The position numbers and the translations under genes are program-made. From the NCBI GenBank assembly GCA_965178125.1, contig OZ237749.1:372001-436000 (forward strand): 64,000 nt of DNA, read 5' to 3'. The notes under the pieces are model-generated. The model worked only from the letters and a program-made list of their open reading frames with translations. It had not been told where the DNA came from and did no database searches. Numbering within the stretch: the first letter of the stretch is position 1; every line of letters begins with the position of its first letter. The DNA is from Bilabrum cf. latius. Taxonomy: Eukaryota. This document shows, piece after piece, positions 19,601-57,641 of the stretch.

Positions 19601-21323
19601 CTGTCACATGTACCCGCCTGCGGTCCATCCAGGCCAACATCTAGGGAATCACAAAGCCGATTGCGTGCACACCGAGGTCACCGCTGGCTATGGCTAGCCT
19701 GAGAGGCGGAGCACGCACGGCGCGGCGGCCCTCCTCGTTTGAATTTGCCTTTCTAGTCTCCAGTGGATGGCTAAATCTCTGTGCATCCGCCAGCTGCTCA
19801 GTCGTCGTTGCCCGCCTACGGAAGCCGTCCGCCACCATGACGGGCCAAGGACTCGCGGCGGTTCTTGAGAGAATGCACTGCGTTGCCCGAATGATCGCCT
19901 GCACGTGGGACCTGATACCGCCCCCGCCCGGGTCTGGCACTGCCTGCAGCCCATCAATCGCTCGAATCTCCGTGGCATTCCCTTCAGCCTTCACGTCCTT
20001 CCAGTCCTCTCTTCCCGTGAAAATGTACCCTAACTCGCACGCAAGCCTTGGCTTCGTGATCTGCAGCCGCCACCATTCGGACCGCAGCACGGTGCGGTCC
20101 ATCTGCGCGCCCCCCGTGATTGCTTCGAACCGGCTCTGCACTGACAAGGACATTGACAGCTCTGCGTCGGCGCTGACCCTGCGTTGCACAGGCTCTGCGC
20201 TTATGATCAAGCTCGCTTGTTTCTCTAGCCGGCTGCTAATCGCTCTGTGGTTGTCAATTTCAAGCTGCAGCAGCCTGGGCGAGGCCATCTGGAGGGAGCG
20301 AATCGGGTCTAGTCGAGAGCCACCCCAGGCTCTGCTCCCCCGGTCGAGAGCTCTGTTCCCCCGGTCGAGAGCACTGTTCCCCCGGTCGAGAGCACTGTTC
20401 CCCGGCCCATGACGACGACCAGGCAATGAGAATGAGCCCTACCGGCGGTACAACCGTTCTTCTCCGTGTCCTCGTAAAGGCAATGGGGCACGCGACGCGT
20501 GCTCCACGGCGAGCCGCCTGAGGATGGCATCCTGCCTCGTGACGGTGGTCATGGATGCGACTTGCGGAACCATGATGAGCTCTGTCGCGGCGCCTCTCTC
20601 CCGCCAGCGGCGGCCGTGCTCCCCCAAGCCCAGTGCTTCTTCGGCGTCGCCGCTCTGGCCCCTGTGGGTGAAGCCTTGGGCGAACCTGGGCCCGACCTGC
20701 ACGGAGGCAACAACACGAGCATTCGCTCCATGCCGTGCCCTGCCGGCTGCCTCGCCTGACGTCCCTAGCAATGGGATTCTAGACGCAAGATATCGCATCT
20801 ATTCCGCATCTCGTACCAATGATGCCATCATGCCAAAGGTTTCAGGCATGACGTGACGCTGCAGCGCCTCCAAAACATCCCATGCGCCGGTGTACAAGGC
20901 TGTAGCAATAGACACAGACGAGTCGCCTAAGCTTCGGTTCTGCTAAAACGAAAGTTTCAATCCAATTCTATGGGCTAGATGCTGGTGCTGGTAAGAATGT
21001 AAGCACAGCGCTGTGAGAGACCTCGCTGCCGACACCCGTTCGCCTACAGTGGCATACTTTGACTGACAAATTTGCCTAAAAAGCTCCACCCTTGCTCCAA
21101 TGGATAGAGATCCTGCCGCAATGACTGTTCTATATTTCTGCTCGACGTCATCGTGATTCCTGATGCTGGCATGGACTAGCTAGAATTGGGGGTCTTTTGA
21201 ATGAATACTGAGTGGCAACATCCCGTCGCACAAGGTGAGCATCGCGGAATCATTGGATTTACACACAGCCTAAGAAACCAAGCAGCAAACCAGGGAAAGA
21301 AAACAAAGAGGACATGTATGCAT
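16671..21323 (-). CDS. GT41-family (OGT/SPINDLY-like) glycosyltransferase, about 1550 aa, with a putative signal peptide and many insertions
   Basis: Motifs LRLAIASGDLGVHAIG, ADVLIDL, RPCRVQAAYLGYAST..DFWIADA, VYMPHSYHP, LLRRVPRARLVL, DMVFDTYPFGTHS and GVPLVAMRG..HIGRVA. I traced a single frame by hand from ATG 21323 (MHTCPLCFLSLVCCLVS) to TGA 16671, with about 13 TAGs and no TAA or TGA. Confidence 0.8.
20335..20404 (-). repeat. 21-bp coding tandem repeat (GNSALDR, about 3 copies) inside the GT41 gene
   Basis: CCCCGGTCGAGAGCACTGTTC is repeated on the + strand. Confidence 0.9.
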
Positions 21324-21894
21324 AGCTTTGCGGCCACGCAGGGATCCATCCTCCGCAACCAGACGCAACAGCGACCAGGTGTGATCAGTGCAGCCCACCG
21401 CAGCGGTCGCAAGCTCGTCGGCGTGTCCGGTGACTGATGTTCAGTGCCACAGGCGACGCCGTAGGGACACGCTGTGAGAAGTATCGCTGACAATAGAAAC
21501 TTGAAGCATGATTTTACCCCACTTACGCCGAAACATTGGATTCCTGTGTCTAGAAGCCTCGCCAAGGCAGCAGTGGCAGTATTCCTACGCGTATGTCGCG
21601 TGCATTTGCCAGTATTCGCCGATAAGGGAGATTCTAATACGGGCTGCATGTTAACTGCTATTATATGATGCACGCTCATTTAAGTCGAAGGCCTGTCCGT
21701 GCGCATTTCGTGCTGCTTACACCATCCCTATCCTGTTTTTCGCAGTTTGACTCGGTGCACCCCAGCGTCGGATCAAATCTAGGAAGGAACGAATGGCGTC
21801 GGCTGCTGCTTCGTAGCCAATTATCAGCCCAATCAAGCGTTCGGGCGATTCTGACCATCGCCGCCACATCGTTTCGGCTGGCACCACGGCCACC

Positions 21895-32409: not shown

Positions 32410-35400
32410 TCAGAACAGGCTATCCGCTCGCCCCCCGCCCCCTCCATTGCCTCCGCGACCGCGACCACCACCGCGATTATCACGTCCCCTGCCTTTGCCC
32501 TTCCCGCCTTTACCACCACCACGGCCCCTGCCGCCGCGGCCACCATCACCTCGCCCCCTCGCCTGCTTCGGTTTGTTGTGCCCCGTATCACGTAGGTGAG
32601 CCTGCAGCTACTCGTGGGTCTCGAACGGCCTGTGGCACACGTGGCAATCAAAATAGCCCCCTTTACCTTTCTTGCCCTTCCTCTTGCCACCCCCGTCCCT
32701 CGCTCGATCATCCCAGTCCCCTCGATCATCCCAGTCGTCGTCCCTCCTACCCCTGCCCTTGCCCCTGCCCTGGCTGTGCAACTGTCTATGCACCTGCCCG
32801 GCTTCCTTCCAGTCCTCGTCATCTTCATCTTCATCCGCGTCATCACTGTCGTACCCGTATCCCACACCGTCATACGCCTGCACAACACGGTCCTCACCCA
32901 CGAAGAGCTTGGCCAGCTCAGGATAGGACATGGCCGCCATCTCGAACTCGTCAAGATCCAGCTACCTGTTGCCGTCATGGTCAAACGCGCGCATGATCTG
33001 ATCCGCGGCCCTGGCTGCCGAGTCCTTGCTGTGGTCCCCCTGGGTGAGCAAGATTTTCATCAGCTCGTCCTCTCCGATCGTGCCGCTGTGGTCGGCGTCG
33101 TACGCCCGGAAGGCCATCCGGATCTTGTCCTTCCTCGTGCCCTTCTGTTTTGTCGCAGCCCATGCAAGGATTTCGGGGACACTAATCGAGCCGGAGCAGT
33201 CCTTGTCGATGGCACGGAAGAGTGCCTTGGTCTGCTAGAAGTTCTTGGCGCCCTCGATGTTGAAGTCGTGCAGGAATTGCGTGAACGCGGTCTTGTTCAG
33301 CTGCTCGATCTTGTGCCTCTAGAAGTAGCTCACCACCTTCCGGATCTGGTCGGTGTTTGGCAGACCCCTGTCGCCGTAGTTGCTGCGCATCATGCTCGCA
33401 ATCTCGTCCGCGGCGCCGCGGTTCCGCAGATCGGGGAGCTTCTTGAGGGGCCGCCCCTCGGGGCACCTCACGATCAGCCGAAGCTCGGGCAGCATCTCGG
33501 TGCGAAAGTAGTCGATGGCGGCTTTGAGCTCGTCGTCGTTCCGCACGGCGCGGTCCGGGTTGATGCTGCCCTTGAGGCTGTATGCGATTTGGAGGTGTGA
33601 CCTGCCCGTCGTCGCTACGCTCCCGGCGCCACCCTTGGCCGCCCCAGCCCCGCTGCTGCTGCTCGCCATGTCGAATACCCCAGCGGCGTCAACGACGCGA
33701 TACTCGTACAGGTGCTCGATATACGCGCGCACTCTCTCAAACGACGTCCTGGAGTCGAGCTGGAAGAACCTCGTGTTCCTAGCGTCATCAGCCGCACTCA
33801 CCACGCACTCCGCGACCACACCCGTCGATGCAGTCCCGCTGTAGGCTCTCAGATCGGCGTCCATCGTGCTTGAGATCTTCAGCGCCTGCTCTTTGTCCAT
33901 CGCCTCGCGCAGCTTCGCACGAGTCTCGCCGTAGCGCCGGATGGCTGCGTCTGCGCGCATTCCGATGTCGCGAGCATCCTCCACGCCTGCCTAGTGACAT
34001 GCCAGCATCTCGTCTCGCAGAGCAACGAGGAACTGCCCGATGTGCGCCTCGACCACCTTTCCCTCCTCGAACATGCGGCGCCTCCTTCTCGACTCGTCGA
34101 TGATGATCTGCAGGACAGCGTTCGCGCGATCCACCAGCTCGGGCTTCATGAAATGCTTGAGCTGCGGCGAGGGCCGCCCGCCTCCGTCGACCCGTTCCTT
34201 GGTGATAGACCTGACGAAGTACTCCATCGCAATGAGAGAGTGCTTCGCAAGGGTCGTGTTGTACACGTACGACGCGATGCCGATGGCCTCCTTCACGTCC
34301 TCGTCCTGCCGGCGGTATTGCTCAAGGGACTGGCTCATCGTCTCGAGCACGCCGCCAGCGATCAGCTTGCGACACGTCGGCGCGTGCAGGGCGAGCTTTT
34401 CGATGATGACCACGGACCGGACCCTGAGCTACGGGTCTTTCTTGACGAAATCGACGAGCAGGCCCAGCAGCCTGGTGTGGCTTCCAATGGCGGCGCGCGG
34501 GTCGAGCTCGATGGTGCTGGTCTTTCGGGTGGAGAGAGATGTAAGGCACTGCAGGGCCTTGAGCTTGACCTCAGTGGACACGTCGGGGTCCTGCAGCACC
34601 GGGATGATCGCGTCCTGTATGAGACCATTGGAGAGGAACGGGCTGGGCTTGAGGATCATCCGGAGTAGCTTGTCGCTGTTGTTTGTGAGCAGCAGAGCGA
34701 TGAGCTGCAGGATGCTTCGCACGAACCTGGTTGCTGCGAGTCTCGACTGCTCGTGCTCGCTGTGCAGGTGCCTGGGCCGCGCCCTCTCTAGCAGGAACCC
34801 CCAAGCTCCCGGATCGGTCTTGCTGCAGGGTAGCAAATGACAGAAAGCGTCGCACAGGTTTGTGAGGTGTCCGTAGGTTGACACGAGCTGCTCGGGGCTC
34901 CTCGTGTCCAGCTTGTCCAGCTGCAGCCGCTTCAGCACCGTCACCGTCAGGAGAAGGCCACCCATCTTATCGTAAGCCAGTCGGTCCAGAGCGTGCGGGG
35001 GGCTGCCGTGGCCGTGTCCGCACATGATTGCAAGGCACTTGCTGATTGCTTCCCGGTTTACCGAGGGCTCGGGGTGATCGACATCGCTAAGCCGCTAGCA
35101 GCACACTTTGGCGATAGCATGATTTTCCGTGAGAAATATGCGAAAATCGGGGGCTTCATCTCCAGCAAACGAGGCCAGAGCGCTGAGCAGCTGGATGCAG
35201 CCCAGACGCACGCTGTGCTTGCCACACGTGGTGCCCAGCCTCACAGCGACGTGCACGAGGGTCTCCCCGGATCGGGTGATACGGCTCCGAAGCATGGGCA
35301 CCCTCGTCTCTTTCCAAGCATTGGACACGTGCCATGTGCTCGTGGGCGGCAGGTTCAGGAATCCAGGCCCTTGGGCGTACATGCGCAGGACCCTGAGCGA

Positions 35401-36481
35401 CGCTAGCACCGCGTTGACGAGGGTGACTTCGCCGAGCCTAGACATGTCGCTCGAGGCGTAGGCGAGTATCCGCGCTGCGTGGTTCGGGACGCCGGCATCC
35501 TTCACGTACTCGAAAGCTGCCATGACGAGCTTCTGCACCCTTCGATCCTTGGTATGGCGCGACCAGTCCGACGCTGCCTCGATCACATGGCAGACATGGT
35601 TCATCCCTTTGAGTTTGCCGGCAGGGTCCTTGCCGCTGATGGCAGCCGACACTTTGTCTCTGATCGGCTTGTTTGCGTCGCTCACGAAATTCTCAAGGCG
35701 CTTGAGGTTTTCTGCGCGAGCCTTCGCCTCTTCTTCCGCCTTGATCTGCCTCTCGAAGGAGTTGAGAGCGGAAGACTCCTCCCCGTCGCTCGCTGCCGCC
35801 ATCGCCAGCCGCATCCTGCCCTCGGCATCAAGGCTGGCATCGGAAAGGTCAAACATGGCGCGAATGTCGTCCAGCACGCGTCGGCGGCTGACGACTTCGC
35901 CGGTTGGGTCGTCATCAGCCCCCCCGGATGCGGACCGCTTCGCCCCGCGGCGGCGCGGGGAAGCGGCAGTTCCAGCGAGCACAAAGCCTTGCACGCTCGA
36001 GAAGAATTCTTTCTTGTTGATCGTACCATCGCCATCCGCGTCAATTTTCTCCATCAAAGCCTGAAGCGCTAGTGCTGAGACGGGCCTACCGGTGAGTTTC
36101 TCGACCATGGCTGCGGTGTATTCGAGCAAAACAAGACAGCAGCAAGCCATGATAGATTTGCGTCAAGCACAACTTTCAACCAATTGTTGCGGAACGCCTG
36201 CCAGCTTACATTTCAGTTCACTCGATGATACATCACCAGATCCGTCACGATCTGCCACAGCCCATACCTGCGCACAACTACAGAGCTAAAAGCAGTATCC
36301 ACCCAATGGATCCACCAGGCACCATGGAAACCCATGCACAAGATGCCACAACTCTCATGCGGGCACAAACATCTATTCTACCATCTATCCATACCTTCTC
36401 CATCATTTCCTCAAGCTCTACAGATGATGCGACAGGCCCTGACTTCTGATCAGAATCGCCGGCTTGCATTTTTGATGACAT
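32410..36481 (-). CDS. Multidomain Ca2+-binding protein: N-terminal EF-hand pair, ARM/HEAT-like helical region, possible PB1-like domain, C-terminal EF-hands, C2H2 zinc finger and RGG tail (introns 36268..36394 and 36111..36209)
   Basis: EF loops DRDGSGDVSSSE, DADGDGTINKKE, DKDCSGSISVPE, DADHSGTIGEDE and DHDGNR.LDLDE. Zinc finger CHVCHRPFETHE.LQAHLRDTGH and a GRGG-rich tail. Seven TAGs. Two canonical introns restore the frame. Ends at TGA 32410-32412. Confidence 0.82.
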
Positions 36482-36973: not shown

Positions 36974-39900
36974 ATGCCTGGACAAATCAATATCTGTGCC
37001 ATCCTAGACAGTATGAACGCCATTCTATATGGGGCTAGCGGTGCTTGTAGGTTGTTGCAAGCCAAACTGGGAGCAGTATTCGACATGGAGAAATCTGCTC
37101 CCATTTCGGAGGTATCATTGCTTGGTGCATGGCTTCATGGCGGTATTCATCTTGAAGATCTCTCGTTGCACCCGCGTCCGACCGGGATTCAAGGGCTGCG
37201 CGTGAAAGGAGGTAGTTGTGAATCTCTCAAGATTGCTTTATCTGGCAACGTGGAGGTGCGAGGGCTCTGCGTTCGTCTGGATGCCACCGAGCTTGTCTTG
37301 CAGAGCATGCAGCGCGCACCGCGACGCGGATCCTCAGCGAAAGAAGCCATACACAGAATAATCAATGCTTGTATTGTGCAAACTATGGCGCACAATCTGA
37401 TTCACGATGCGATCGGCACTTGCGTAAGTTCTTGATATTGGAGTGCATGGGCAACTGCAACTCGATTGCTGCATTCCGAACCATTGTAATCCCGCTTGCT
37501 GGATGCCTCGCAGTCTAGAGTGGAGGTGCACGAGTTAGAGGTCGTCCTGAGGCTCGTAGGGGATCAAATCGCAACCACCCAGCAGAGTCCGGTAGTATCG
37601 GCTAGGATCAATCATACGACGACTACACAAGCATTTGATACCAAGACAGGGAGTCCCCGTTGCAGAGTTGCAATGCGAGATATACTTGTGACTTGTGGTT
37701 TAGTATGGGCTGGTCCAACATCGTCCCTTCCGGAATCGAAGTCTACTGCCAGCGACTCCTTGCAGCCTGCACCAGCAGGGGGGGATGCATCAGCACCAAG
37801 CATGGCGGGAGGAGAAGGAACCGGTGATGATCAGGCAGCTTCCGGTCAACCTAAAGGCTCTGTAGAACACTGTATCGTTCGGCAAGCTCTGAAGGCGACC
37901 TGCAGGCAGGCGAACATCACGATCACGTCCGCGCTGCACCTTGGATCAACCGCAGAGAGATCACACGATCCATCAACCAGTGTGCCTGATGCTGAGAATC
38001 CGGGAGATGAAACATCACGGTCATCGCATTTGCATTCAAAGCTTGATCCAGCGCCCCTGACAGCTGACATGAACCGAGAGGCACAGGCATCAGCTAGCCA
38101 AGCGTCGCCCCTTTCTGATCGACAGCCAGGTATATCCGTTGAAACTGAATTGCGAGGGGTACGGTTGCTCCTGGGTAACACATCTGATATCGAGGCCTTC
38201 ACGCGCTCGATTTAGAGCAGGCAAGATGTCCCCAGTCATGCTGCTGTCCCTGCTGCTGTCCCTGCCGCTGTCCCTGCTGATCTCCCTGCTGATGTTCCTG
38301 TTGCTGCCCCCGAGGCAATTGAGCCCGCAGATGTCGTAGACCGCGCGGCAGCGCATATTGCGTCTCGACTGCGCGATCCTGCAAGCATTCCTGGCATACA
38401 TTTTGCTATCGAGGTAGTTTCAAAGCTTGCGGCTGATGCCGGCGTCTCTGAGGCAGCGGCACCCAGTGCAGCGCCACGCACTGCAAGTTCAGCCCTCGCA
38501 GACCCTCACACGGACCTGGGGCTATCTTCGTTTGAGTGGTTGACATCGATGCCGTCTGCATAGAGCGATCTGGCGTCCAAGTTGCGCTTATTGAGCCGGA
38601 TCTCTTCGGCCCCACTTCGCACCCTTGCGCAAAAAGGGCTAGGACAATGGAAGCAGGCAATCTCCATGGAAGATGTGGAAGGAACAGCGGATGTCGAGGC
38701 TGTGAGCTTGAATAGGGGGCTTGAAAAGCCTGCCAAAGCCCCTGCATCGGCACGGTCCAGAAGGGGACGCTCATCGAAGCACAGCGGGGCTGCCCCGAGG
38801 GACCCGAATGGCCCTTCTTTAAGCGAGTCATCCATCAGTCGCCGGAAGACAGTGCGGGTTTCGATGCTTTGCAGTCAGGTGGATATTGACGGGAGTATGG
38901 GGTATCGATTTGTTCGGCCTGTCGATCACTTTACTGCTGCAGGTTGCTTGGTGCACTCCACTGCAGCTAGTTTGCGCATCAATGGCAGCAGGACGATTGC
39001 ACGTCGGCTGTCAACAGGTGGTAGGAGTGGAGGGAGTGGCGACGATAGCATCGCGATCATCTGGGATGCATTGGCCGATACCGATGAAGGGGGTTCATTG
39101 GAGGAAGCTGCAACAAGTGGCGCTTCGGAATCGAAATCTGACGAAGTTGGTGTAGACCATGCAACCGTCGGTGGTACCACCGCTGCTGGCAGCGGTCTTG
39201 AATCCGAGCCAGTACATGGGCACCACGTAATCCAGGCATCGGTAGCCCACGAATAGCGCCTATGGATTTGGGCTGCATCGGAAAAACTCGATACGGGGTT
39301 GGGTGCCATGGATGCCTCCTTGGTGATTTGGATACGAGCTTCGGCGGCCTGTATGGATCTGCCATAGTGGTCATACGATGCAATTCCGCCTGCACTGCAC
39401 GCGGTTGAAGCTCTTGCGCTGCCATTATCGCGACTTTTCAAAACCGCGCTCAACGCGACTAGCGACGGTCCAGGGTGGTTACCGCACAGCGCGCCGATTG
39501 CAGTGCGAATTGACGCTGAATGCGGAAACGTCAAGGTACAGGCGCCCCGCCAGGGCACACAGCACCAGCAATACGATGTAACTCTTGCATGTGGACCAAC
39601 GCGGCTAAACGTGCTGTCAGTTCGTCGGCAAAGCGCTGCCCTGTTATGCTCCCAGCAGCTCGTGTCCAATGCGGCAGTCCATACTGAAGCAGGCACAGGC
39701 TCGAGCCCGGCGCACGGCTTGCCCGCAAGCGGTGCAGGAAGCAGCAGTCCAGGCTTGCAGCGGCCAGATAGTTGCAGTTCAGGTCCGAACGATAAGCTGT
39801 CCGCAGCTTTGCTTCGTGATGCGCTGATAGCTGTTGCGTAGGATCAGGTGCTATTTCTAGAGAAACGCAGTGATGAGCTGCCATTTGTTGCAGCTAGTCG

Positions 39901-42900
39901 GCAGGGTGGCGTAGCAAGCCGTAGGCTGCAGGTACCATTGCCTACCATCGCGGTGCACGCTGAGAGCCGCGCGGTTCATGGAGCGATGCAACCTGCCTCC
40001 GGCAGGTCGTCTTGTGCGATTCGAATTCCTAGCTTGGACACTGAGAGAATTGTTATCGCATCGCTTCAGTTCTCTTCTGTGTCTGCAGCAGTTGTAGAGG
40101 TAGACCACCCGAACCATGCATCTAGCCCAGAGGTGCAGGCGACTGCTGGATACGGCTGGGATGGCCCCATGCGGGTGCACCTGACGGGCGTATGCTTTGA
40201 AGTGGGTGGTCTAATTTCTGCATCTCGAGGTCCCGATCCGTTGACACACGGTGCCAGTAGCGGTGCTGTGAAGTAGCCCGAGCTCCCACCAGTGAGTCGT
40301 CCATTCCCAAGGCAGTATTTCTTGGCAAGCTGTGACAAGTTGCACGGTGAGCTCACATCTCCAGCAGCTGCTGTGGTTCTGCGGACCCTCAATACAGCCG
40401 CTGGCACGGCCATCATCGTTCTCGAGTCCAGTCCATCGATGCAAGAGATTGTCACGATAGCCTCGAAGGAGGGGGCTAGGATCACGCAGAGAAGGGGCCG
40501 TCCCGAGAGCCTGGCTTCAAGGAGCCTGGTCTCCTGGCGTCTGGATCAAGCGAACGCGACACTTAGACCAGACTTCGGAGCTAGTCCGAGGAAATAGGCG
40601 AAAGCGATGGGATCGGTGGGTATACAAGGGCTGGCTGCCAATATTGATTTCACAAGTGTCGACTCTGATGCCTAGTTTACGATGAAGCAGCTGCAGGTAC
40701 GTGCTGCCGTGTCCCCGAGACTCGACGCCTCTCGCGCGTGCGGTGTTCTAGACGGGTCGATCGGCCTCGACCTGCGAGCATCTCTCAAGCAGGCTCGGGT
40801 ACCATAGGTGCAGATCGACGCCAGGATACCGTGCGCGGGGCTGCTGCTTGTGCGGGGGTCTCCAACCCGAAAGTCCTTCGTGGATTCGACGACGCGCGGT
40901 CACAATACCGATACGGCTCACAATGGCCGAGATCAACACACATTCGATACGATTTTGTAGCCGATGAACGTTCGCCTACATGCTGATGCTGCACGATAGT
41001 CTCGAGAAGACGGCTCGGAGGTCTGGAGCTGGGCTCACCGCATAAACTTGCCGAATGTGGTCGTCGCTGCTTCGAGCGCGGATGTCGACTACATTCTGCA
41101 GTTGGTTCTATTTGCCCAAATACAGTTGGCGATTCTTCGGTAGTCAGGTACTTAGGCAGCCGAGCGCGTGCACCAGTTCCGCAACCTTATACGAAGTAGG
41201 CTCGGCATTGACTAGTCTGTGAATAGCAGGACATCAGGGAGGATGGTTTCGACGCTGAACGGGTCACGAAGAACAATTGGGCGCGCATTCTAGCAAATGA
41301 TTCGGCCATCCGTTTCTGGCCGGCGCAGCCGACGCAAATCGTTATCGTCTTTTCATGCTGGTGTCATGCGCCGGAGATCGGCGGCACTGTCATCGACCAG
41401 AGCGTAGCGTGGGCAAGTGGCTAGTCGCCTTGTTCCAGCGCATGTTCTAGACCATTCGCGCAAGAATACGATACAATCCGTCGAAGTGCGCACCGGCCAC
41501 GTCCGAATCGCGGTGCACAGCGATGTCACCGCCGTCCGGCCGGCTCTGATCCGGCTGTGGTTAAACAATATCAGGCTCCAATCAGACGGGGAGAGTTCAT
41601 CGCTGGTTGCAGAGGCAGCTGCTAGCTATTTTAATCAGCGGTTGGAGTGCTTTGAGCCATTGATGGAACCGTTCACTTTCAGTGGTCGAGTCAGTTCCCA
41701 GGTGGTACGAGGCACGATCACTGCGCAACGCATCACTGCAGCTGTGTCGACTGAGGATCCCATCAGGTTTGTCGTGTCGCCTTCATTTGTGCGGGTCGTA
41801 ATGACTGCAATAAACGAGACGACAACGATGGCGCGACGAGTTTCCAGGACCTGGAAGCGAGTCAGGAACTCAGCATCGTCAACGTCGGCCTCAGCTCTAG
41901 CAGAGCTTAGGGGTGTCGACCCTAGACGATTGAGCTCAAACTTCGCCAACGTGCACGTGCGCAACTTAGGCAACCAGAATGTTGGCGGCATTCGCCTTCA
42001 CAAGCGCGGTGAAGACAACTAGATGGTCCAGATGGTGGCCGGTAGTACAGTATCCCTGAAGCCAATTGATACGCGTACAACCAGCGATGCGCCATCCAGT
42101 ATCGGTGGTGGCATTGACATGGATTATGGTGTAAACTTCGGCCTCTCAGCGGGTCCAAGCTCCATGTCGTTTGCTGCTCGCGGTTTCCATGGAATCCTGG
42201 AAGGTCTCTTCCGGTACGCAGGCCAGCAGTCCGTGCCGCATGGAGCGGTTAGTCGCCGGATCCGCGATTGCCCCGAGTCGTGGGGAACGACTTCTAGAGA
42301 GACTTCCAGGCTTCAACTGCAGCTTACGCCGATGCACTGGAAGAAGGGGGCCGTACTCGACAGGCGTGATATGCTGGTTCGTCCCGGTTGCGCACCAAAG
42401 TACGACCTCGAGCAGGAGCTTAGACGAGACGCTGAGGGAGCATTCAGCACGGCGCCGCCTGATGCCCGGGCAGCTGTACATGAGTTTGTCCGTAGGTATA
42501 GAGGCTGCTCATGCCAATTCCTTACTACCATGAATGGGATTCTGCAGCGGCAAGACGGCTCTTCTGTCGTGGACGTAGTGCCGTCTGCGTGGCTGTCCAA
42601 CAACCTCTCATCTGCGATTGAGATAGGTACTTGCACAAGCTTGGAGGGGCATGTTCTGGCATAGTACCCCCAACTCGTGAGTTTCTGGCGTGGGCCAGCT
42701 GAACGAGCAATCGTTCAACCCGGATCAACGTTTAAGTTCAAATTTGACTGCGGCTCGCGCCCAGTCGTTTGGTTTCGGTTTGCGGACTCGGCCGGTACAA
42801 CAGCTGCTGCGAATCGTGTAGATTCTCCTGCGGTAGCTGTGGAAGCAGCTGAAGCCGTGGTGCCAGGCGTATCTACAGCTGCGTAGCCTCCGAGCCAATT

Positions 42901-45900
42901 GCCAGAGCAATCGCCGTGGATGTGTTTATTTGTTGACGTGTCGATGCACGGTAGCCCCGCGAGCTCGAAGCGGGCAGCGAGATGTCTTTTGTCACCGCAC
43001 ATGAACAACGCGGATGCGCTGGAATCCCGTGACATTCAAAACGCAGAACAGATGCTAGAACGGTGTGTCTAGAAGGACTCTGCGGTATTTTCTCGTTCCT
43101 TGCAGCAGCAATGGCAAGAGGCTATTGCTGATGTGCATAGGTCCATGTCCAGTTTCGGCGGAGCTCTTGATCTCGAATAGGTTGCTGGTGCCCTTGAGCA
43201 CCCGGGTGGCCCTGCAAAGAATCGGTCGCTTCACTTTGTGTGCGCTGGACACGCACGAGCAGAGGCTGGGAGACTCCAGAGGCACAGTGCGCAAGCAAGT
43301 GCCTTCCCGAGAAACTTCCTGATGACTGCTAGAGCGGTGTCTTTGAACCCGTAGCATGCTCCAGCTCTGCAGTCTGATCTTGCTGCAGGTATGAATTCTC
43401 AGAAACTGTACGCAGATTCCATTGAACTGGTGCTGGAGCCATCCGTTGTGATAGTAAACGAGCTGCCTCGAGCTGTCTCGCTGTCCGTGTCCGCCACAAA
43501 CGCACTCGATCACGCCTCAGCGTCGCTGGTGGCACAGCTCAACCGTAGAGGCGCCATGGAGGCCCCAAAGCCAGATGTGCACGTACTGTAGGCAACAGTC
43601 GGAGCAGGAGGAGAATTTGGAATCGCCGGTCTGCTCGACAAGGTCAGGTGCTTGCCACCGCCACTAGTGTACGGCAGCTAGCTACAGCAGCCAGCAGATA
43701 ATGCGAGTGGTAGCTGGGGAGCGAGTCATCTCGGGCAAGAATCACCGTACCAAGGCATGTCAAGATCTGGCGCACGAGACGTGTTTCGCAGCATGTATCC
43801 CCTATCAGAGTCTAGCACCGTGATTCAGCTAGCGGGCGTGCGGCCAGGGTCTCACCCAGCACAGCAGGCGGCCATCACGCAGTCGCTTCGATTCACTCGT
43901 CAAGATATCCTGGGAAGCTTGGCGGTGTCAGAAGCACTGTATTCGTACTTGCAGCACCTGTTCTAGTCTCATCCCGATGGTGAGGCCGGGGAGCTAGAGC
44001 AGGGCAGCCGGCCATCGCTTCTACAACGGATTTTAGCCGGTGGTATTGCAGCCTACCGTGAGTTCACCACGAAACGAGAGGATTACAGCCACGTTGAGTC
44101 GTTAATGCTGGCAATTCGGTCCCGGAAACCACTAAGCCAGCTCAGCCTGCAGGTGCGATTCCCTAGCAGCCCCGTTGGCTACCATTTGGTTGACGAGCTG
44201 TTCCGCCCTTTGCCGTTCAAGCTAGTGTGCAGGCGAAGGCGTAGGTATAGAGGTGCGCAATTTAGGCCAACAATGCCGGTATCTTGGCGTGGTACCGCAT
44301 TAGAGACTGACTCTGACGTCTGCAGCACTACTGCGATCGTTCTAGCATCTGAGGTGCAGCTACAGAACCTAGGCAGCATTCAGCTCGTCTTCTCAACACT
44401 GTTCCATGAATAGCCCCGTGCGGTGCCAGCTCCAGCTGTGGCTGCGGGACAGAGCTGCATCACCAAGCTCTAGATGTATGAGTATGAAGAGAGAGAGGGT
44501 GTGCTAGAAGCAAAGTACAAGAAGATTGGGTGGGGCGTTGAGGGTGGGCCCATCCTTCCTAGTCTTTCGCCAGCGCTCGTCAGAGATCGTCTTATTTCCT
44601 TTGGTACGCACGATAAGGACGGTGATGTTTCGGATGACAACGATCACAACAATGGCAAGCAAGCCGGCCCAGGGGCTGCAGGTCTATCGACATCCGGTAT
44701 TGGGCTTCCAGGAGGGACGCGTCGGGCAGTTGTAGATACCACGCCCAGCAGTTCCGACATTAGCAGCAGCCGGTTGCCGTGGATTGTAGAGGATGCCTGG
44801 CAGACTTCACGCTCACTTGAGCTGTCTAGCTCATCTGTGTTTCAACCAACTAGCTTCGTATCTGAAGCAAATTGGAGAGGCCCGGCTAGAATCATGTTTC
44901 GTCGACGTGCAAATAGCCTAACTGTCTTGCCAGCCAGGCAGTCTGGCCGGCCAAGTGGTCTAGTGGCTCTAGGCAGCGCTAGAAATGACAAGGAGCTGGA
45001 GGAATATCGTCGCAAGATGATTGGCATGCCGACGGAGCAACAGCAGTATCACGTTTTAGAAGGACCCCCCGCTGGCCTGTGTCTCTGTATTGGGCACGCC
45101 CATGCCATTGCAGAGGGACGCCAAGGCACTGGCCCATCGAGTGGGGCGGGCGCTGCAGGTGGCTCCCCAGATAAAGCCAAGGCATCACCACAGTCAGCAG
45201 GGGGACAAGTGTGGGCTGCAAAGGTCCGTCTTGCTGATCTCGTTAAAGGGCCCATGCTGGTTGCACTTGGCGGGCCTGGGAGTGTCGCTGAGGCGGCTGG
45301 CACACACGTGTGCATGGCAATGGTGCCCGGCGGTATCGCTCAACGTATCATTCTTGAGTCGACCACTAGCAACGAAGAAGTTGATCCCACAGTCACGACA
45401 GTGAGTGCATCAGGTGGGTCTAGCGGCAGGGTCTCAGTGAAGACGTGGCGCCGTGCCGCGGCTACTCCATCCACTGCCGTTGTGCTCGTAGCGCCACCCA
45501 TCTTACTGAAGAATGCAACAAATTTTTCCCTGCGAGTGAGGCTTATTGCAACGAAAAGCGAAGATGCACACCATCAGAACTCTTCTGCTCCTCGTCGGAC
45601 CCGCGGTCCGACCGCCCGAGTGTAGCCAAAGCAGCGCGTTTCTGTTTATTCATTGCCTAATGGACCACGGAGCGAAGTTGCGGCCGTGGTATAGCTGCTT
45701 GATCCAGTTACAGGCACGCCTGTATCTTTTGAGTCGCCAAATCTGCTATTGAACGGGAATCGATCGGTCGAGGCTCGGGTGGCTTTGTCGGGCGTGAGTG
45801 GGGGTCACCTGCATAGGCACAACGGTGCAATCCTGCAGATGGAACTCACCTAGGATGATGTGCTCGGGACGTGCACATTGGTTCTTAAAACCGTGATCGG

Positions 45901-48900
45901 GCTTGCAGAACCCATGAGTATGATTCTTCGGCAGGCTCCGTCAGAGTTCACCGTTGCAAGGCGCGAGGACAGCGATGCGCAGCAGCCAACAACTGTTCCA
46001 AGAAAGCCTAAATGCGAGATCGTGAACCAGACGTAGTCGTGGTTTCTTGTGTGCGCAGTGCGCCATGCAGCCGTGCCTTCAGCCAGACACAAGACGGTAG
46101 GAACGGATGGGACCAATGCATAGCAATGGCTGCAGCCGTGCTCCATGGTTGGAAGACCTGTTTTTGTCCCGCCGGCTGGCAGCATCCCTTTCGGTTGGGA
46201 TTCTCTGGACCCGCTCAACATGAGCGCTGTGCTTGTTGTGCCCGTGCTTCGCTCTACAGGCTCAGAGAGTGAGAACGATGGAGACGATGCACCCGTCAAA
46301 ATGGTAAGTGTGTTTCCACCGGACGTTCGCAAGGTCGCTCTGCCTTTTCGAAGCTTAGTGGTCGATGCATCAAGCGTTCCTGAACGAGCGTGCGTCATCG
46401 AGAACGAGTCCGTTTTGCTGTGGCCGGATGGTGCCGGCACAGATGCAAAGTGTTCAGCAGTTCCTGTATGGGTTACATTGCGAAGGCAAGACGCATGGAC
46501 GGCATCCACAGATGACGCAGTGAGCAAAACCAGCGTTGCGATGGATGCTATTGGTGCAAACACAAGTGAGCCAGCTAACGGTGCTAGCACCAGTGAGCCA
46601 GCTAGCACCAGTGAGCCAGCTAGCACCAGTGAGCCAACTAGCGGTGCTAGCACCAGTGAGCCAGCTAGCACCAGTGAGCCAGCTAGCGGTGAGGATGGGT
46701 CAGCTGCAAGTATTTAGGCCCTCGGGGGTTTGGCAGACAGGGTAAGGAAAGCCTATCGCACTGCAGACACGCAACCTCTTAGCGTGGGTGAGTTGGTTCG
46801 GATTTGTTTCGAAGATCCCATCACTGGCCAGACGTTGGTACTGGCCAGTGGTCCTGGATCACAGGCACGTGCAAACGAATCAGCCTCGGCACCAACTGCC
46901 GCAATGGGAGAGAAGTTCAGCTCTACTGGTGCAGACTCGGCCGTTGGAGTGCGTGATGCTGCGATGCAGTGCATGTGGTAGTCTGCTGGTGGATTGAACA
47001 GCAACATGCATGGTTTAGGTTCAACTCCAGGTAACGATAAAGTATTGCCTCTTGAGGGTGGCAAAAAGGAGCATCCAGTTGTTGATCTGTCAGCAAGCAA
47101 AATAGCTGCCGGGTAGGAGACGGGTGCTGCTGATGGCGCACCCCGCCCGGCGACACTGCCCCAGGGCACTGTACTCGAGTTTGAGCTGAGGCCAGTTGAA
47201 GCTGGCGGTAAGTTGCCCAGAGTGTCTGCAGTCCGCAAAGAGCTGGAAGACTCAAGACTTGGCCTTTGGTGCACCTCGAAGCCGGGTTGGCTGCACGCAC
47301 GTCCAGACGGCTCGCTGCTTGTGTCTGGTTCTACTAGCGACGGACGAGATAGCGAATCACCTGTTACAGTATTGGTTCATTCTAAGCTCCGGTCTTTCCT
47401 ATAGGATGCAAGACCCTCCGGGCAGTCTGCAGCTGCCGATTTTGGGCCAGCTTCAGAAGATACTACCGATACGACTGACCTACCGACTGAAGAAGCAGCG
47501 ACAGCCTCAGGAGTTGTGACGCGCGTCACCAGCGAGTTTGCACTGTGTCGTCGGCCCCGGGTTCGCACATTTGCCAGAAAGGCTGAGGTGTTCTGCGTGA
47601 CCGATGGGGGTCGCACCCAAGTAGTCATCCGAGGTACCGGCACAGACATGTCAAGCTCCAGGAAGGAGATGAAGAGGCACCGGGCAGCAAGCAGTACCGT
47701 ACGATCAGCGAGCGTTGACAGAAGACACCGAAAGAGGAGAAGTAGAGCAACGGGAGGCGATGAATCAAAAGAGTAGCCACGTCTGCCTTGGTTGCCACCT
47801 GTCCTGCAGCTCTAGCTGCCATGGGTTGATACGACGATTTGCGGGACTCAAGGGCGAGAACAGCTAGCAATACATGCGATGGGCGTAAATTTATCGATTG
47901 TTGGGGGAGCGCGACCCACCAGTGCTGTTCCTGTCCCTTTTTGGAACTTGCTTAGCATTGCCCTTGACGTGGATCACTTGCAAGTCGACCACACGGCGCC
48001 CATTGAATCAAAGCTGGGCGGATTTCCTGTTCTACGGAGAGACTCGAAGCTGTTCGAGTAGCGTTCGGATCCCGTGCGAGGAGGACCCGTTCCCGACCTG
48101 CGTATTGTAGTCGGTATGCCAGTGGGACCGGGCAGCCGAACAACAGCAGGTGAGAGTAGGATTTCCAACATCACCGTGGGTCTGGCTCCCATGCAACTCA
48201 TGCTGAAGCTGTCGACGATGTCTTCATTCATTGGATGGTGGAAGGAGGCCAGTGGGCAAGTTGATGCGAGTCCGGAGGAGCAGAACCAGCCTGGTATCAT
48301 GCAGGGGGGGTTGCACGGTGGAAGCAGCACCAGATCCCCACAGCGTCTCAGAGCGCGGTTTCCACTGCAAAACGGCACTATGAGCGTGGAAGAAGAGGAA
48401 GTTATGCTTCAAGCAAGCCAGGATCGCAACTTGGCAGGCAATAATGTCCACTATAGCGCACAGTCTCCCGGCAGAGCAACCGCGTCGTTGTTCTAGCGCA
48501 CTGTGGTAGAGAACTTTTCTTTGCTTCCCGTGGAGCTGGTCGCATCCGTGCGACTAGCTGACCTGGATCCAGGGGCTTCAGGTGCTGCTCAAGCGCATGT
48601 ATTGCAGGCAATGGGCCTCCCTGCGTTGAACACCCTCGCTCAGCTGACGAACATTTCCAATTGTGCCATTCGCATCGACGGGCTGGATATGCGCAAGACA
48701 AGGAGGAGTCTATCGGACCTGCGGCAGATTCTTCATGCGCATTTGTACGGGCACGGGCTATCCATCCTTGCCAGAACGCTCCTATCTGTAGATGTATTCG
48801 GAAATTGGTAGGACAGCGTGAATCGGGCCGCAGGTGGACTCTAGAGAACATACCGTACATTCGGTGACCTTCGAGAAAATGGCAGGATATATAATCCCAT

Positions 48901-51900
48901 TGCTGTTGCTGCTGCCGCCCTTTACAGCGCATCCCAGATTTCTGGCTCGCTAATCGCTAACGTTTCCGGATCCGTCGCAACATCGATGGACACCGTCAGC
49001 GCTGGGGTGTCTCACTTGGCTGTTGATAGGGACTATCTGGAAGAGAGGGCGCACGTGGCGGGGAGCAAGTCCAATTCAAGCGCAGTCGATGACCTGTCCG
49101 CTGTGGCTGGTGAAATTGCTGGGGGCTTTGTGGGTGGGCTGATGTCGGTGCCACAGCAGACTGGTGCTGGTTTCCGAAGCGGCGGATTCGCTGGCGCTAG
49201 TGTAGGCTTCCTGACGGGCTCGCTGGGCACTCTGGTAAAGCCAACGGTTGGCTTGATTTCCGGGGGCGCAAGGTTGTTTTCAGGCGTCACGAAACTCCTT
49301 GATTCCCAGCTAGCACCAGAGGTGACCACTCGTGGTATCGTGCTCCCGAATTCGTGTGGAATACTGCTGACGAATCCCTCGCAATATGGAGGCAGTCCAA
49401 ACCGCATAGCGGATGCATCCGGTGCGGCCGAATCTCGCCCACCTGCGTCTGGTGCAGGCGGGAGAGACGATCGCGGCATCAGTGCAAGTCGCCAAGCATC
49501 GAGCAGCGATAAGTCAAGCGAAGCCGACGCCAAGGCACGAGAGCAGAGGGACACAGTCCGATATCGCAGAATAGGATGGGGTCCAGGTCATGCCGTGGTG
49601 CCCATTCGCGCCGACCACGCACTCCTTCGACTAATACTAGGAAGCTTGCGAGATGCCAACGGATCGGCACGCACAACCCAGGTGTCTAGGGATGGACCAG
49701 CCAGCCCCCCTGCGCGAGCTTTGGAGGGCAGGCGATCCTGGCTGTCCTCGGTAGGTTGCTCCCTTTCTCCGGGTGGACAGGCTGTCGTAGACTCGCCACC
49801 GACGCTGCATCGCAACGAAAGGTATGTTTCGCACTTTGTGTGGCCGACTGTAAGTTTCTCTTCACTGCTGGATGGTCTCCCCGGAGCAGGCAAAGGCAGG
49901 CACGTGCTGCAGCTTGATCGCAGCAACGACAGGCTAAGCATGAGCGTCATGCTTGTCACTACAGATCGAATCATGCGAGTTCGAATCGACCTCGATATGT
50001 GTTACAATGGCAGCAGCATGTACATTCCGTACGAAGCTGTGGCGGATATGAACATTGACAAGGTGCTGATCGCCTTGCAGCTGATTGCAGGCGCATCACC
50101 AGAGGGTTGGGACCGCGTGCTACACGGCGCCTCTGTGGAGTTTGAATGGACAGTGGACCTGGCTGGAGATGTAGCGCAGGGTCGGCACAGACACGAAGAA
50201 GAGACGCGGCTGCAGCAGGTGTCTGAAGACGTGAACCTGGCCATTGAGGCCATACTTGGGTCTGACCTCGAGGCGCAGACAGCGCGGGGTTCCATGATCT
50301 ACCGCGCTTTCCACTCATTCTTTTGTCAGATCGGCGGCACGCCATCCAACAAGGTTGGTGACTTGCCGGGTCTTGGAAAGCCGCCAGCAGCCGAACGAGT
50401 CTCCAGCACTGGATCAACACCAGCTAGCGGCTCCAGCGGCGCCGCGGCGGCCGCTGCTCCAAGCATAGCTGGTATTGCACGGCGGCCGCAGCTGAGTATG
50501 GATGACCTCATGCGACCTGTGGCCTCGAGGCCCGTGCCACAGGCCAGCATGCGGTGCGATTTTTCGGCTGATGCTGCGAGGCTACTTACGCAGCATTCCA
50601 ATCGCGCGATCCGAGCAGTGGAGGAGATCACCGGGGCCCGCATCGAAGTGCTCCCTGCGAATGACCTCGACGGTCGGGGCCCTAGAACTGTTGTCATCAG
50701 CTCGGAAAGCGTTGATATGTCAGAAGCTGCCAGGGACGCCCTGTATTCGAAAGTCGGCGCCTTGCGGGCTGCTATCGATGCCGGCGAGGAGACAGAGTCC
50801 GCCTACACTCGCATTCTGCCTGGGCCTGGCGGGGCACTGACGACGGAGGAGGAGGATGAGGATGTCGCCGCAGCTAGTTGTGCTACTTCTTAGAGTATTG
50901 CTGGACAGGGTCTGGGATACGGGGCTGCCAGTACCGCTAGACTGGCGACCAGCAGTACGTCTGTAGCAGGGTTGCAGGCTATGAGGCTGTTCTCAGCGAC
51001 TGGGGGCTTTGCTGCTGGTGCTATACCAGAGGTAAGCGAACCATCGTTGTCTCCCCGCATCAGGCGCAGTGCTGGGGAACCAGCCGTTGCTTTACTAGCG
51101 TACAGGCCGCTGTTCCACCCCTGGGCTGTAATCGGTCTGAGCCTTTCGTTTGAGCGAAAGTTTCGAGCGTGGCAACGCCAGGCAGATGCACTGAGGCGGC
51201 AATTGGAGGCGCTGCGGCGCTCTCGGTAGGCCTCTGGTGTGACCAGTACGAGCGGTGCTGGCGGTGCGCTTGCTAGCTCAGGCATCAGCGGTGAGGGTGG
51301 TGACGCCTCAGGTCATGGGTCGGGCCTTGATCCCATGCGGCCCTGGCTTCGATTAGTCGACGCAGAAGAGTGCGACCTGTTGCAGCTAGCGGCTGCGGAG
51401 GTTGCGACCGGTGAGGACGTAAAGGTAAGAGGGAAGGAGCCCAGGGGCATGATGCCGCTTAGCACGTTCGAGGCTCTTGCTACGGCGGACCTCTCCGAGC
51501 CTGTCGCTTGCTTGCAGGCCATGGATTGTCGGCTGCATCCTGCTGCAAACAACGTCTTGTTCCACGCCGCGTACCGCCGCGCCATCGTGCGATGCACCGA
51601 GGCACACGATTCTGTAAGGATGGTACAGAGTGGTGCTGGTTCTGGTGCTGCTGGTGGTGCCCCTGCACGCGACATATTCGAAGAGGAAGGCATTCGACAG
51701 AACCTTGTCTCTTTTCTTTTGCTACTCGCGAGGCCCTCCCGCTTGCTCGAATGCATATTTTTCGCTCGAGCGACCGTAGCTCGGGAGAGCCTAGCTGATG
51801 AGTACCGCACCTCGGGGCACGATGAGGTCGACGCAGGCATACGAGAGCTGCACGATTCATTGCGGAGGGGGCTCGGGACGATTTTTGCTGTGCTTGAATT

Positions 51901-51919
51901 CGTTAAGTCTGAAGCGTGA
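36974..51919 (+). CDS. VPS13: VPS13-family bridge-like lipid transfer protein, about 4950 aa (intron 37424..37513)
   Basis: Chorein-N-like start (LLQAKLGAVFD..WLHGGIHLEDLSL..LRVKGG), ASYFNQRLECFEPLMEPF, VAB-like PILLKNATNFSL and PSVVIVNELP, FGWDS, and ATG_C-like GF..GSLGTLVKPTVGL. The 14.4-kb second exon is open in one frame apart from about 45 TAGs. Ends at TGA. The start may instead be 37013. Confidence 0.88.
46560..46690 (+). repeat. 18-bp coding tandem repeat GCTAGCACCAGTGAGCCA (ASTSEP, about 6 copies) in VPS13
   Basis: Directly visible. Confidence 0.9.
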
Positions 51920-52205
51920 TCGTAAATCCCCTGTTCACCTGGCATCTGGCAGCCGATTCACTCCAGTGTTGGCTGCAACTTGGCTTGCCAGCAAGAGATA
52001 AAGCCCAAGCTTCGGGGCGGGTGGCCGCATGATTTAGTGCACCTAAGTAACACATAGTGAATCTTTGCAGCAGTGCTGAGGTCAAGTCGCGACCTGGTTG
52101 GTCAAACAAACGGAGATACAATGGTTGCGTGCATATATAAATTCAGAAAACACTGCACTGTGGTACCGCGACTGCGAGATATCTATACGTGGCCCTAGTG
52201 TTAAA

Positions 52206-53012
52206 ATGTCCGATACAACGCAGCCAAAGCTTCAACGGTAAGGTTATATGTATGTTTTCGAGTGGTCCACTTTTGCCGTTGCTTTAGGTGACGCGATGCT
52301 TTGACATGTTCGACTTGGCTATGAGGAGCGCAGAGCAATTAGATATATTCTCAAGGAGCAAGGTATTGAACACTTCGATGATGGGGTCATGGAATAGCTC
52401 ATGGATGTCGCAACTGGATATGCGTCTGAGCTGCTCGGAGAATGCGACAGAGTTCGCAGATACTCTGGAATACCGACAGTAGACCGGTTCGTGGCCGAAA
52501 CTGCAACTGATCTCGTCTAGTAGCGATGTGTAGCACCTGCAGCGTCTCGAGAAGACTAGCTCGCGGAGGCATTGGCTATAAACGACCGTCCGTTCGTACC
52601 GAAGGTGTCAGTGTCTCCGGCATACCCGACAGGGAGCGCCTGCCTGCTGCCGGTGCTGCCTGCTTCCCAGGACAAGCCTGGATCAAGGGCACTAATTCAA
52701 TCAGATGCATCTTTGACATATACAAAAGAGTATTACTTGCTGGATGAGCACGTCAGAAATCTGCGCAAGGCTTGGAGAGTAGCTTGCGATATTGAAAAAG
52801 AGAAGCGAGATAGAGACGGAAGCGCCGGCGCTCGCCCAGCCGGCAGGGCACCCACGCAGGCAACGGGAGCTGCAAGTTTTGCACCGTCCCTGTAGCGAGC
52901 CAACGCTGCCACGCAGTCACCTGCTGGCTCGGCAACGTGGTCACCAGACACCGGCAGTTTGGACCCAACAGCCGGGGGGGCTCGGAGAGGAGGGACTGGC
53001 GCGCCTGGCTGA
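52206..53012 (+). CDS. TAF9: TFIID subunit TAF9 (TFIID-31 histone-fold), divergent (intron 52238..52333)
   Basis: The spliced product reads PKLQRAIRYILKEQGIEHFDDGVME*LMDVATGYASELL...SRED*LAEALAINDRPF. This matches the TAF9 pattern I..IL...G...Y/F...V..QL(L/M)(E/D)....Y...L ... RE.L...A...N..P. Five TAGs. Ends at TGA. Confidence 0.75.
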
Positions 53013-55521: not shown

Positions 55522-57641
55522 TCATGTGTTCATACCCTGCGTCCCGTAGGTGGTCGTCCCGCCCCTGCCCATTCCTGAATCCTTCCCATCTCGTAAAAAA
55601 CGCTGGCCCCCACCGGCTGTCCCCGCATCTTGCGGAGACGGCCCGGATGAGGGCGAGGACCCTAGGCGGGCGTCAGCCTGCCTGGATCCGAATTCCATGC
55701 CTGCGAATGCAGGATCGTCAGTGTAGTCCAGCCCGTTCAGGCTTCCTCCCAGCGAGCTGTCAGAGCTGTCACGCCTGGGACCCTGCTCAAACGACTGCGG
55801 CTGCGCCTTACCACCATCCCCGAACGTGTCGCTGAAGAATCCCTTGCCGGATTGATTACCGCCGGCTCCCTGATTCCTCCCAAATCTGCGCTTCGGCGAC
55901 TCGTCCGCAGAGACCTCCTTCACCTTGGTGCCAGCTGCGGGATTCCTCACGTCCACCACCACCTTGTCCCCGTCAGAATCCTTCTCGGGCCTGAACTCGG
56001 AGAAGACCTGAGGGATGGGGTTGATGAGGTCCTCCTGTGTGAACTTGTCGATCGTCGACTGGGGCAGCTTCTCCACCTTTGAGAAATCGGCGCTCTCGAT
56101 CGTGCGGTACTGCTTGTAGATGTACCGCATCGGCAACACGCTGAATGCCAGCGTGTTCACGATCGCGCTGGCGACGGCGAGGAGTCCTAGTGACGTGACT
56201 AAGTTAATAAGAAGAGTGGGAATGTCCCACTGGCCCACGAGCCCCGTCTGCTTGACCACAATTCGAAGCCCGTGCCTGTCGATGATCGTCCTGTTGATGT
56301 CCTCCACACCCGGCTCCGGCGTCAGCTCCTCCCCCTTGTACTCTGCATTCTTGACTCTCTGCACCCTGATTGTGTAGGTGATATTATCCTCCTAGAAGGT
56401 CTGCTCGTTCGAGTATTCGATGGAAACGACGAGGACGGCCCCAGCGTATCGGATCGTCTCGTTGTAGAGATCAAAGTCCTCTGAGCTGCTCGCCCGGGCA
56501 TCCAGATCCGGGATGCCTGCGGCCTGCATGATTGTGTAGACGGGGATGATGTCTTTCTTTCCCTTGATCCCGACCTGCACAGTGTCTTTGTCGCACTTGC
56601 TGGGCTCGTTCAGAACCTTGTCGTACACGTCGCAAGGATCCAGCCAGTCCCCGTCTTGGTTCACGATAGCTCCGCTCAGATCAGCAGAGGAGTACGACAG
56701 GTCATATTCCGGGACCGACATGGTATGGTCGATCCACACCGTGAAGAGCTCCGGCTCGCCAAGGTAGTAGGTGGCCTGGTACACGGTCTTGTACCCGCAC
56801 TCTGGCCGCTCGAGGCTGTTGCAGTCGTCGTCGAACTCGTTCGAAGTCAAGTTGGCGATTCGCTCGTGGTCATTCTTGATACGAGTAGCCAAAAACGTCG
56901 CCTCTGCGGGTCTTATGGTGATATCATGGGGGTGTGCGAATTGTCAATAGTGGTACGCGTTGCAACGGAGTGGATAGAGGATGAGGTAGCTGCAGCAAAC
57001 AGGCACAGGCGGGCCAGCAGCAACCGGTGTCTCCGGCAGCGCTACGGCTTCAGGCTCCGGAACCAGATGCCTCACCTTGTTCAATAGAAGGATAAATAGC
57101 ATCGTTACCGTCCAAATACCGGCACGGCGCCATGATTTCAGTTTGCCCTGGGTTGCCCCCATGGATCGGGTACACCCCACTGGTCTGGTTTGCCCCGAGG
57201 CAGTACTCTAATTCCTCCGGAGGGCGAGCTACCATTCTGCTTGTACTTGGTCGTTGCAGCTGCAGCCTTGCTGTTCCAGTCACCTGGGCAGTCTTCCTGT
57301 ACCCTTTCTGGAGGACGACATTGAACCCAACCTGCGACGCTGGTGTACAAGGCATGCATGCGCTGAGGCAAACTCTAGGAAGCAGAAACCATACATACAA
57401 CCAATCAATATCATCTGTCCGGTTTCTGGGTATGGCGGCAGCAATTAACGGCAGTCTCGCAGAAATGCCACGCCGAAGTTTCCCCAGAACTGCTCCTCAC
57501 GACGTAACCGAAGATAAGAACCATAAAGGTCAGGTTCAATATACCGAGCTTTCTATCTTTGACCCGTACGAACCTTTGCGTTTCATAGGCAAACACTTCA
57601 TCGCAGTCTTGGCCGCAAATCGTATCGCAATTGCAGCTCAT
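55522..57641 (-). CDS. P2X: P2X purinergic receptor (ATP-gated cation channel), introns 57332..57500 and 56904..57075
   Basis: N-terminal FAYETQRFVRVKDRKLGIL (YxTxK/R motif), TM1, QKGY, FLATRI, ELFTVWIDH, RYAG..V.I.Y.N, RHGLRI..QTG..G.WDIPTLLINLVTSLGLLAVA and YKQY. GTGAGG donors and GCAG acceptors restore the frame. One TAG at 56392. Ends at TGA. Confidence 0.92.

Follow-up and report, generated by a model that had tools for sequence, protein, structure and literature searches.

Predicted reading of UAG as glutamine in the nuclear genome carrying a giant VPS13-like gene with 44 in-frame TAG codons

Does a 14-kb stretch of coding-like sequence strewn with stop codons represent one gene or the debris of a gene? 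The question is raised by a forward-strand frame in the window, that is, the whole analysed stretch of 64,000 nucleotides from contig OZ237749.1 (positions 372,001 to 436,000) of the Bilabrum cf. latius assembly GCA_965178125.1. At positions 37514-51919 this frame consists of 4,802 codons with 44 TAG, no TAA and a single TGA, the terminator at 51917-51919. This agrees well with the original prediction of a hidden VPS13 gene with reassigned TAG, which had counted about 45 TAG and no TAA or TGA in about 4800 codons. The base composition predicts approximately 48 TAA and 68 TGA in the frame, and the log10 probability of zero is about -51. The remaining five frames of the region contain 78-231 stops each, with TAG, TAA and TGA all present, and among the stops of the other two forward frames TAG makes up 66 of 168 and 72 of 231, respectively. 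Translation and counting of stops, proposed earlier as the check, gave neither multiple in-frame TAA or TGA nor a listed frameshift. Under the standard code the frame falls apart into 45 pieces with a median length of 73 codons (longest 682), in line with the dozens of fragments anticipated for standard annotation.

The gene structure was compared with contigs of four sequence runs, X1-X4, none of them confirmed as RNA. Contigs of X1, X2 and X3 (two studies) share a joint that skips 90 nt with GT..AG ends, whereas the X4 contigs read straight through the same positions; from this difference we infer that the X1-X3 contigs derive from transcripts. Six X1 records span positions 37019-51993 with identical letters and no additional joint within the frame. 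Their cover has holes at 39331-39393, 44498-44516 and 46609-46657 (19-63 bases), so that the single-exon structure applies to nearly all, not all, of the frame. No variant letters are seen at 42 of the 44 TAGs, each located 30 bases or more from the end of an X1 contig; the X1 contig carrying the splice joint, the sole contig shown spliced, retains two TAGs unaltered; and the X4 contigs are letter-for-letter identical. No insertions, deletions or further joints within the frame were listed in the contig comparison, and the claim of a 14.4-kb exon broken only by TAG holds to this extent. Positions 37013-51919 are an intact two-exon gene, despite the apparent stops. Counted from the ATG at 37013, the protein is 137 + 4,801 = 4,938 aa long, where about 4950 aa had been expected.

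The 14-kb stretch makes one intact gene because TAG is read as glutamine, in which case the glutamine codons of the second exon are CAG (114), CAA (58) and TAG (44). Databases contain two fragments, at 79-81% and 98% identity, whose ends lie exactly before TAG sites. The VPS13 fragment with about 80% identity suggests that a relative shares the TAG code.

The residue encoded by TAG was assessed in dynein heavy chains, 10 kb being taken from each of 19 loci (28 match rows) of the assembly (48.6 Mb, 111 contigs). These loci comprise 61,920 codons, including 268 TAG; some of the frames may hold in-frame introns. Eighteen frames are open for 3,208-3,333 codons without TAA or TGA, TAG being the sole stop, and the remaining one breaks after 2,387 codons, probably at an intron. 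Columns with at least 12 other sequences contain 198 of the 268 TAGs, and 64 are in columns with a majority residue, namely Q (31), E (8), R (7), K (4), V (3), L (3), D (2) and others (6). At 50% majority, glutamine columns account for 318/548 CAG, 34/67 CAA and 31/64 TAG codons; at 80% agreement or more, for 117/149, 15/20 and 14/18, respectively. Tyrosine is the majority residue for none of the 64 TAGs, also at the higher threshold, compared with 381 of 533 TAC codons. The glutamine hypothesis scores -124.5 and the next residue -228.7, a lead of 104 log units over 64 sites, and the column profile of TAG correlates with that of CAG at 0.96. Tyrosine, leucine, glutamate and lysine were dismissed as readings of TAG, as was read-through of TAA or TGA. 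The 4,801 sense codons of the second exon include neither of these two stops, and in-frame TAA is also absent from the 18 uninterrupted dynein frames.

Several further long frames of the window are lengthened by TAG read-through (for example, 16671-21440 with 13 TAG and 12247-16413 with seven), as are the dyneins and the paralogs described below, and thus the pattern is not special to the VPS13-like gene. In-frame TAGs are present in the essential genes encoding Prp8, the release factor eRF1 and glutamyl-tRNA synthetase. When the two TAGs of eRF1 are compared with outside homologs, one aligns with Q in 91/97, and the other with L in 91/98 and Q in 7/98. Across genes TAG constitutes 1-25% of glutamine codons, its share climbing as the GC content of third codon positions (GC3) drops, and the window gene (GC3 0.55, 20%) is on the trend.

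Some observations do not favour glutamine. More than half of the TAGs in majority columns (33/64) are outside glutamine columns, although the numbers for CAG (230/548) and CAA (33/67) are similar. Of the four TAGs in Prp8, two occupy columns in which 36/37 homologs have P and H, respectively, a third belongs to a variable region, and the fourth comes ahead of the alignable portion. Finally, the sample of gene ends considered below is small and hand-picked. With these points taken into account, comparison of the sequences indicates that UAG is very probably a third glutamine codon in the nucleus, UAA and UGA still being stops (NCBI table 15). The suspected reassignment of TAG is therefore borne out genome-wide, with glutamine as the residue.

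Among 19 gene ends checked (seven dyneins with fetched ends, Prp8, and 11 genes picked by a C-terminal motif), 16 are TGA and three are TAA. In these 19 genes TAG was observed neither as the terminator nor past the C-terminal motif or among the final 45 residues. One possibility is that UAG has a dual meaning, glutamine within genes and stop close to transcript ends, comparable to the ambiguous ciliate codes. Indeed, UAG recognition may survive given the conserved elements of eRF1 listed below, and in two putative frames on the flanks of the window a TAG stands at most eight codons from the TGA. However, with TAG ending none of the checked genes and with TAA and TGA as dedicated stops, this possibility is quite improbable.

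A tRNA gene with anticodon CUA and a complete cloverleaf fold was found at G000:C23:907607-907679 on the minus strand (69.8 bits). The search scored 63 of 780 candidates, so that the tRNA set is not complete, and gave 48 Rfam matches, one of them CUA. Intronless CTA and TTA anticodons were also sought by pattern (35 rows), in a scan that intron-bearing or atypical genes would escape; it produced no tRNA with anticodon UUA and no tRNAs at 33 other places. The CUA tRNA would most likely decode UAG, would be unable to read UAA, and is predicted to be charged by glutaminyl-tRNA synthetase. The CUA tRNA coincides with tRNA-Tyr at 50 of 75 positions, with Glu(CUC) and Gln(UUG) at 49 each and with Gln(CUG) at 46, and hence is no nearer to the glutamine tRNAs than to those of tyrosine or glutamate. 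Moreover, it has the C1-G72 pair, as tRNA-Tyr does, and this pair is a determinant of eukaryotic tyrosyl-tRNA synthetase. The acceptor stem equals that of the genome's tRNA-Tyr at six of seven positions per strand. These features, together with tRNA-Tyr being the best overall match, speak for a rival reading in which UAG encodes a different amino acid or, in part, tyrosine. However, the discriminator is G as in tRNA-Gln(UUG) rather than A as in tRNA-Tyr, the D and T arms also resemble those of tRNA-Gln(UUG), and no TAG is in a tyrosine majority column; on balance, a meaning other than glutamine is slightly less probable still than the dual one. Pseudogene decay, an artefact of assembly, and loss of the TAGs through splicing or editing of the RNA can be dismissed as explanations of the frame: although the protein is very divergent and unrecognised by Pfam, and the runs are contigs, X1 being labelled 'probably DNA', all 44 in-frame stops are TAG, the essential genes carry it too, the X4 contigs agree in every letter, and the spliced contig retains its TAGs.

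The gene model of eRF1 consists of four exons with predicted intron ends, encodes 438 aa and ends with TAA. Both in-frame TAGs (L001:1418-1420 and 1585-1587) are in the stop-recognition domain, one of them being the last codon of a predicted exon, and they could create a feedback loop if any UAG termination remains. In human numbering, offset from L69, the protein keeps GTS, E55, S70 and YxCxxxF, and TASNIKS is changed to TAVNIKS. The TAVNIKS variant was not observed among 21 distinct NIKS-region sequences listed from a metagenome scan of eRF1 exon 3 (79 loci, at most 73% identity). Residues that are rare or missing in homologs are S60V (S in 93/98, V in 1/98), N30D (D in 0/92) and F117P (P in 0/98), accompanied by many other substitutions. 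Position 69 is a glutamine encoded by TAG; since the same residue occurs in 7/98 homologs, it is not diagnostic. Panek et al. (2017, PMC5304391) link loss of UAG recognition to the substitutions T32G (Iotanema) and L69A (exLh). Neither substitution is present here, and as GTS is kept, the mechanism of Iotanema does not apply, which counts against a loss of UAG recognition.

The altered eRF1 may nevertheless have lost or weakened recognition of UAG, and the CUA tRNA is probably charged with glutamine and outcompetes such a UAG-weakened factor. A more specific scenario would combine the first nuclear code change in stramenopiles with a new route to it: a CUA tRNA of mosaic character, charged with glutamine in spite of its tyrosine-like acceptor stem, and an eRF1 that lost UAG through changes near NIKS rather than in GTS and itself needs UAG read-through for its synthesis. 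This scenario as a whole is tentative and rather doubtful. If it is true, a free-living relative of Cafeteria, a host of giant viruses, could suit giant viruses with TAG as glutamine as a host. No match to Pox_A32 was found in a search of the assembly, which is not evidence of absence.

The source organism is, with good probability, a bicosoecid stramenopile related to Cafeteria, as suggested by its protein sequences. The best-scoring named match of eRF1 is that of Cafeteria roenbergensis (68%), and a quick tree, for which 44 of 121 sequences were used, groups the two together with SH-aLRT (Shimodaira-Hasegawa-like approximate likelihood ratio test) support 92. Prp8, 69% identical to its Cafeteria counterpart, groups with the Cafeteria clade (FastTree 1.00 with 38 rows, SH-aLRT 99 with 18 rows), its sister clade in the tree, of which C. 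roenbergensis is the named member. However, the Prp8 branch is long (0.7), which makes its position less certain than the support would imply, and the sole named organism among the 120 best cox1 matches is an oomycete. Close relatives match at 89% in eRF1 and at 94% and 89% in cox1. The eRF1 of C. roenbergensis differs in having TASNIKS and L69. Its mitochondrial UGA encodes tryptophan, as here, and in the accessible text of its genome paper a non-standard code is mentioned for the mitochondrion only (PMC6972860). The mitochondrial contig of the present assembly (G000:C111, L110-L113; 38.4 kb, 24% GC) has long gene frames on one strand, with TGA as tryptophan and no TAG, and 10 tRNAs by ARAGORN. 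An eRF1 labelled Symbiodinium sp. KB8 (P0010) groups with the Cafeteria-related sequences and is possibly a contaminant of that assembly. A second 18S rRNA gene (G000:C95:6099-7900, L071) on a 17.9-kb contig is 77-83% identical to the tandem copies of C12 and probably belongs to a contaminating eukaryote.

UAA and UAG nearly always change meaning jointly. The few uncoupled cases in the accessible text of PMC11687900 include no stramenopiles: UAG alone is reassigned to leucine in exLh and three TARA ciliates (phyllopharyngean metagenome-assembled genomes), to serine in Scotinosphaera, and to glutamine in Iotanema, Protocruzia tuzeti, Hartmannula and Trochilia. Iotanema spirale (PMC5304391; PMC9161772) has the same codon table with uncoupled UAA and UAG; however, it is an unrelated fornicate, its eRF1 carries T32G in the GTS motif that is intact here, and the 2017 paper (PMC5304391) predicts a CUA tRNA for it without identifying one, whereas in the present genome such a gene is available. 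In Hartmannula sinica, Trochilia petrani and Protocruzia tuzeti, as here, glutamine for UAG only was derived from conserved glutamine columns (McGowan et al. 2024, PMC11687900); all three are ciliates, however, and the paper detected a suppressor tRNA in neither H. sinica nor T. petrani. The rhizarian exLh is similar in that UAG alone is reassigned and Leu69 of eRF1 is changed, the residue here being Gln69, but in exLh and the TARA genomes (leucine) and in Scotinosphaera (serine) the amino acid is different.

No nuclear code change in a stramenopile or bicosoecid was found by title or abstract in the literature, although supplements (P10K code tables) and subscription journals could hold one, and none is mentioned in the accessible parts of PMC12152300, PMC12574857, PMC11412368, PMC10120064, PMC10767852, PMC6972860 and PMC9161772. 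This appears to be a known rare code in a new supergroup, of which the producers of the assembly may already be aware. A single, well-assembled sequence offers reassigned codons, a candidate tRNA and the release factor, beside a well-studied relative that is annotated with the standard code. With this combination it could be tested by which residues eRF1 tells UAG from UAA, and in what way glutaminyl-tRNA synthetase tolerates a CUA anticodon. There is also a practical aspect: standard-code annotation shreds such genes, and public databases already contain fragments cut at TAG sites.

The VPS13-like gene in itself is of modest interest. The identity of its product was confirmed in part: the ATG_C-containing C-terminal region and one middle segment were recognised, and the Chorein_N, VAB and PH domains were not. 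The domain search recommended with the original prediction was unsuccessful, as the Pfam scan of the exon-2 protein yielded no match to the VPS13 family, the sole signal being a sub-threshold KH_1. In a phmmer search against PDB, one stretch matches human VPS13A (9yg5, E 6e-10) and VPS13C (9yqp, E 2e-5). The 617 residues around it have 67 matches among cluster representatives, and 10 of 11 long ones scanned carry VPS13 Pfam domains. A local profile built from the 14 longest of the 67 matches recognises residues 3782-4065 (E 7.5e-36) and residues 1448-1586 (E 7e-11, 25.5 bits, the best shuffle scoring -3.5 bits); for the latter segment Pfam VPS13_M gives E 0.007, under the family cut-off, and the remainder of what would be the repeating beta-groove middle region has no match.

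Several domains expected of a VPS13 were not confirmed. Chorein_N has no Pfam match, a weak local-profile score (5.4 bits) and an hhalign probability of 4.6%, whereas the same profile finds two paralogs at E 1e-26 and 4e-12. Neither Pfam nor a profile of six sequences detected VAB repeats; the profile gave weak pieces only, in the C17 paralog, and about 2,200 residues are without a match where VAB is expected. The C-terminal PH domain was undetected by Pfam and profile searches; matches of the putative PH region to designer pentatricopeptide repeat proteins in PDB were dismissed as summed weak repeats. Like human VPS13A and VPS13C, the protein is giant and shows the last part of the middle region followed, in the correct order, by the C-terminal region with ATG_C (PMC7613979), but identity at the best region is about 20-28%, there are many low-complexity inserts, and an extension of about 870 aa with a weak KH-like signal follows the matched region. 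Since VAB repeats, which distinguish VPS13 from ATG2 (PMC7613979), are unconfirmed, we call the predicted protein a divergent VPS13-like one, which is a safe label, rather than VPS13 proper. By analogy with the family, it seems likely to form a lipid bridge between membranes. The window gene is one of at least three VPS13 paralogs. The other two have the same TAG pattern, with 25 TAG in at least 6,359 codons (C17) and 49 TAG in at least 6,546 codons (C10).

Table 1. Coordinates of the features in the window
Feature	Positions	Strand	Comment
Exon 1	37013..37423	+	137 codons from ATG (predicted start codon); 37019-37423 covered by an X1 contig with a joint to 37514
Intron	37424..37513	+	90 nt, GT..AG, phase 0; joint in X1, X2, X3, not X4
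Exon 2	37514..51919	+	4,801 sense codons including 44 TAG as Gln; ends with TGA
Possible degenerate Chorein_N region	within exon 1, 37013..37423	+	local profile 5.4 bits, best of 301 including shuffles
End of VPS13 middle region	41444..41860	+	local profile E 7e-11; Pfam VPS13_M E 0.007
Tandem repeat, low-complexity linker	46561..46691	+	in-frame, 18/45/63-nt periods
VPS13 C-terminal region, ATG_C-type glycine-rich amphipathic helices	48446..49297	+	phmmer; local profile E 7.5e-36
Possible KH-like domain, C-terminal extension	50603..50743	+	Pfam KH_1 20.0 bits (cut-off 21.5), E 6e-4; a hint only
Intron of next gene	52237-52332	+	joint in X1, X2, X3
Non-long-terminal-repeat retroelement, reverse transcriptase frame	7349-10294	-	5 TAG
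EF-hand and zinc-finger protein	32410-36162	-	
P2X-receptor-like gene	55522-56943	-	
Membrane protein, probably joined to calpain domain	58016-63998	-	

The other features of the window are listed in Table 1. Most TAGs of the retroelement recur in 11 further copies with 96-100% identity, apart from single CAG, GAG and TAC variants, and thus the element seems to have spread under the host code. Elsewhere in the genome there are dispersed near-identical tRNA-Met-like genes (L046-L048, L025, L035, L039), three of them with an 8-base anticodon loop, possibly representing a tRNA-derived repeat. The usual anticodon of eukaryotic tRNA-Ile is AAT, and the nuclear tRNA-Ile genes L011 and L043 have GAT.

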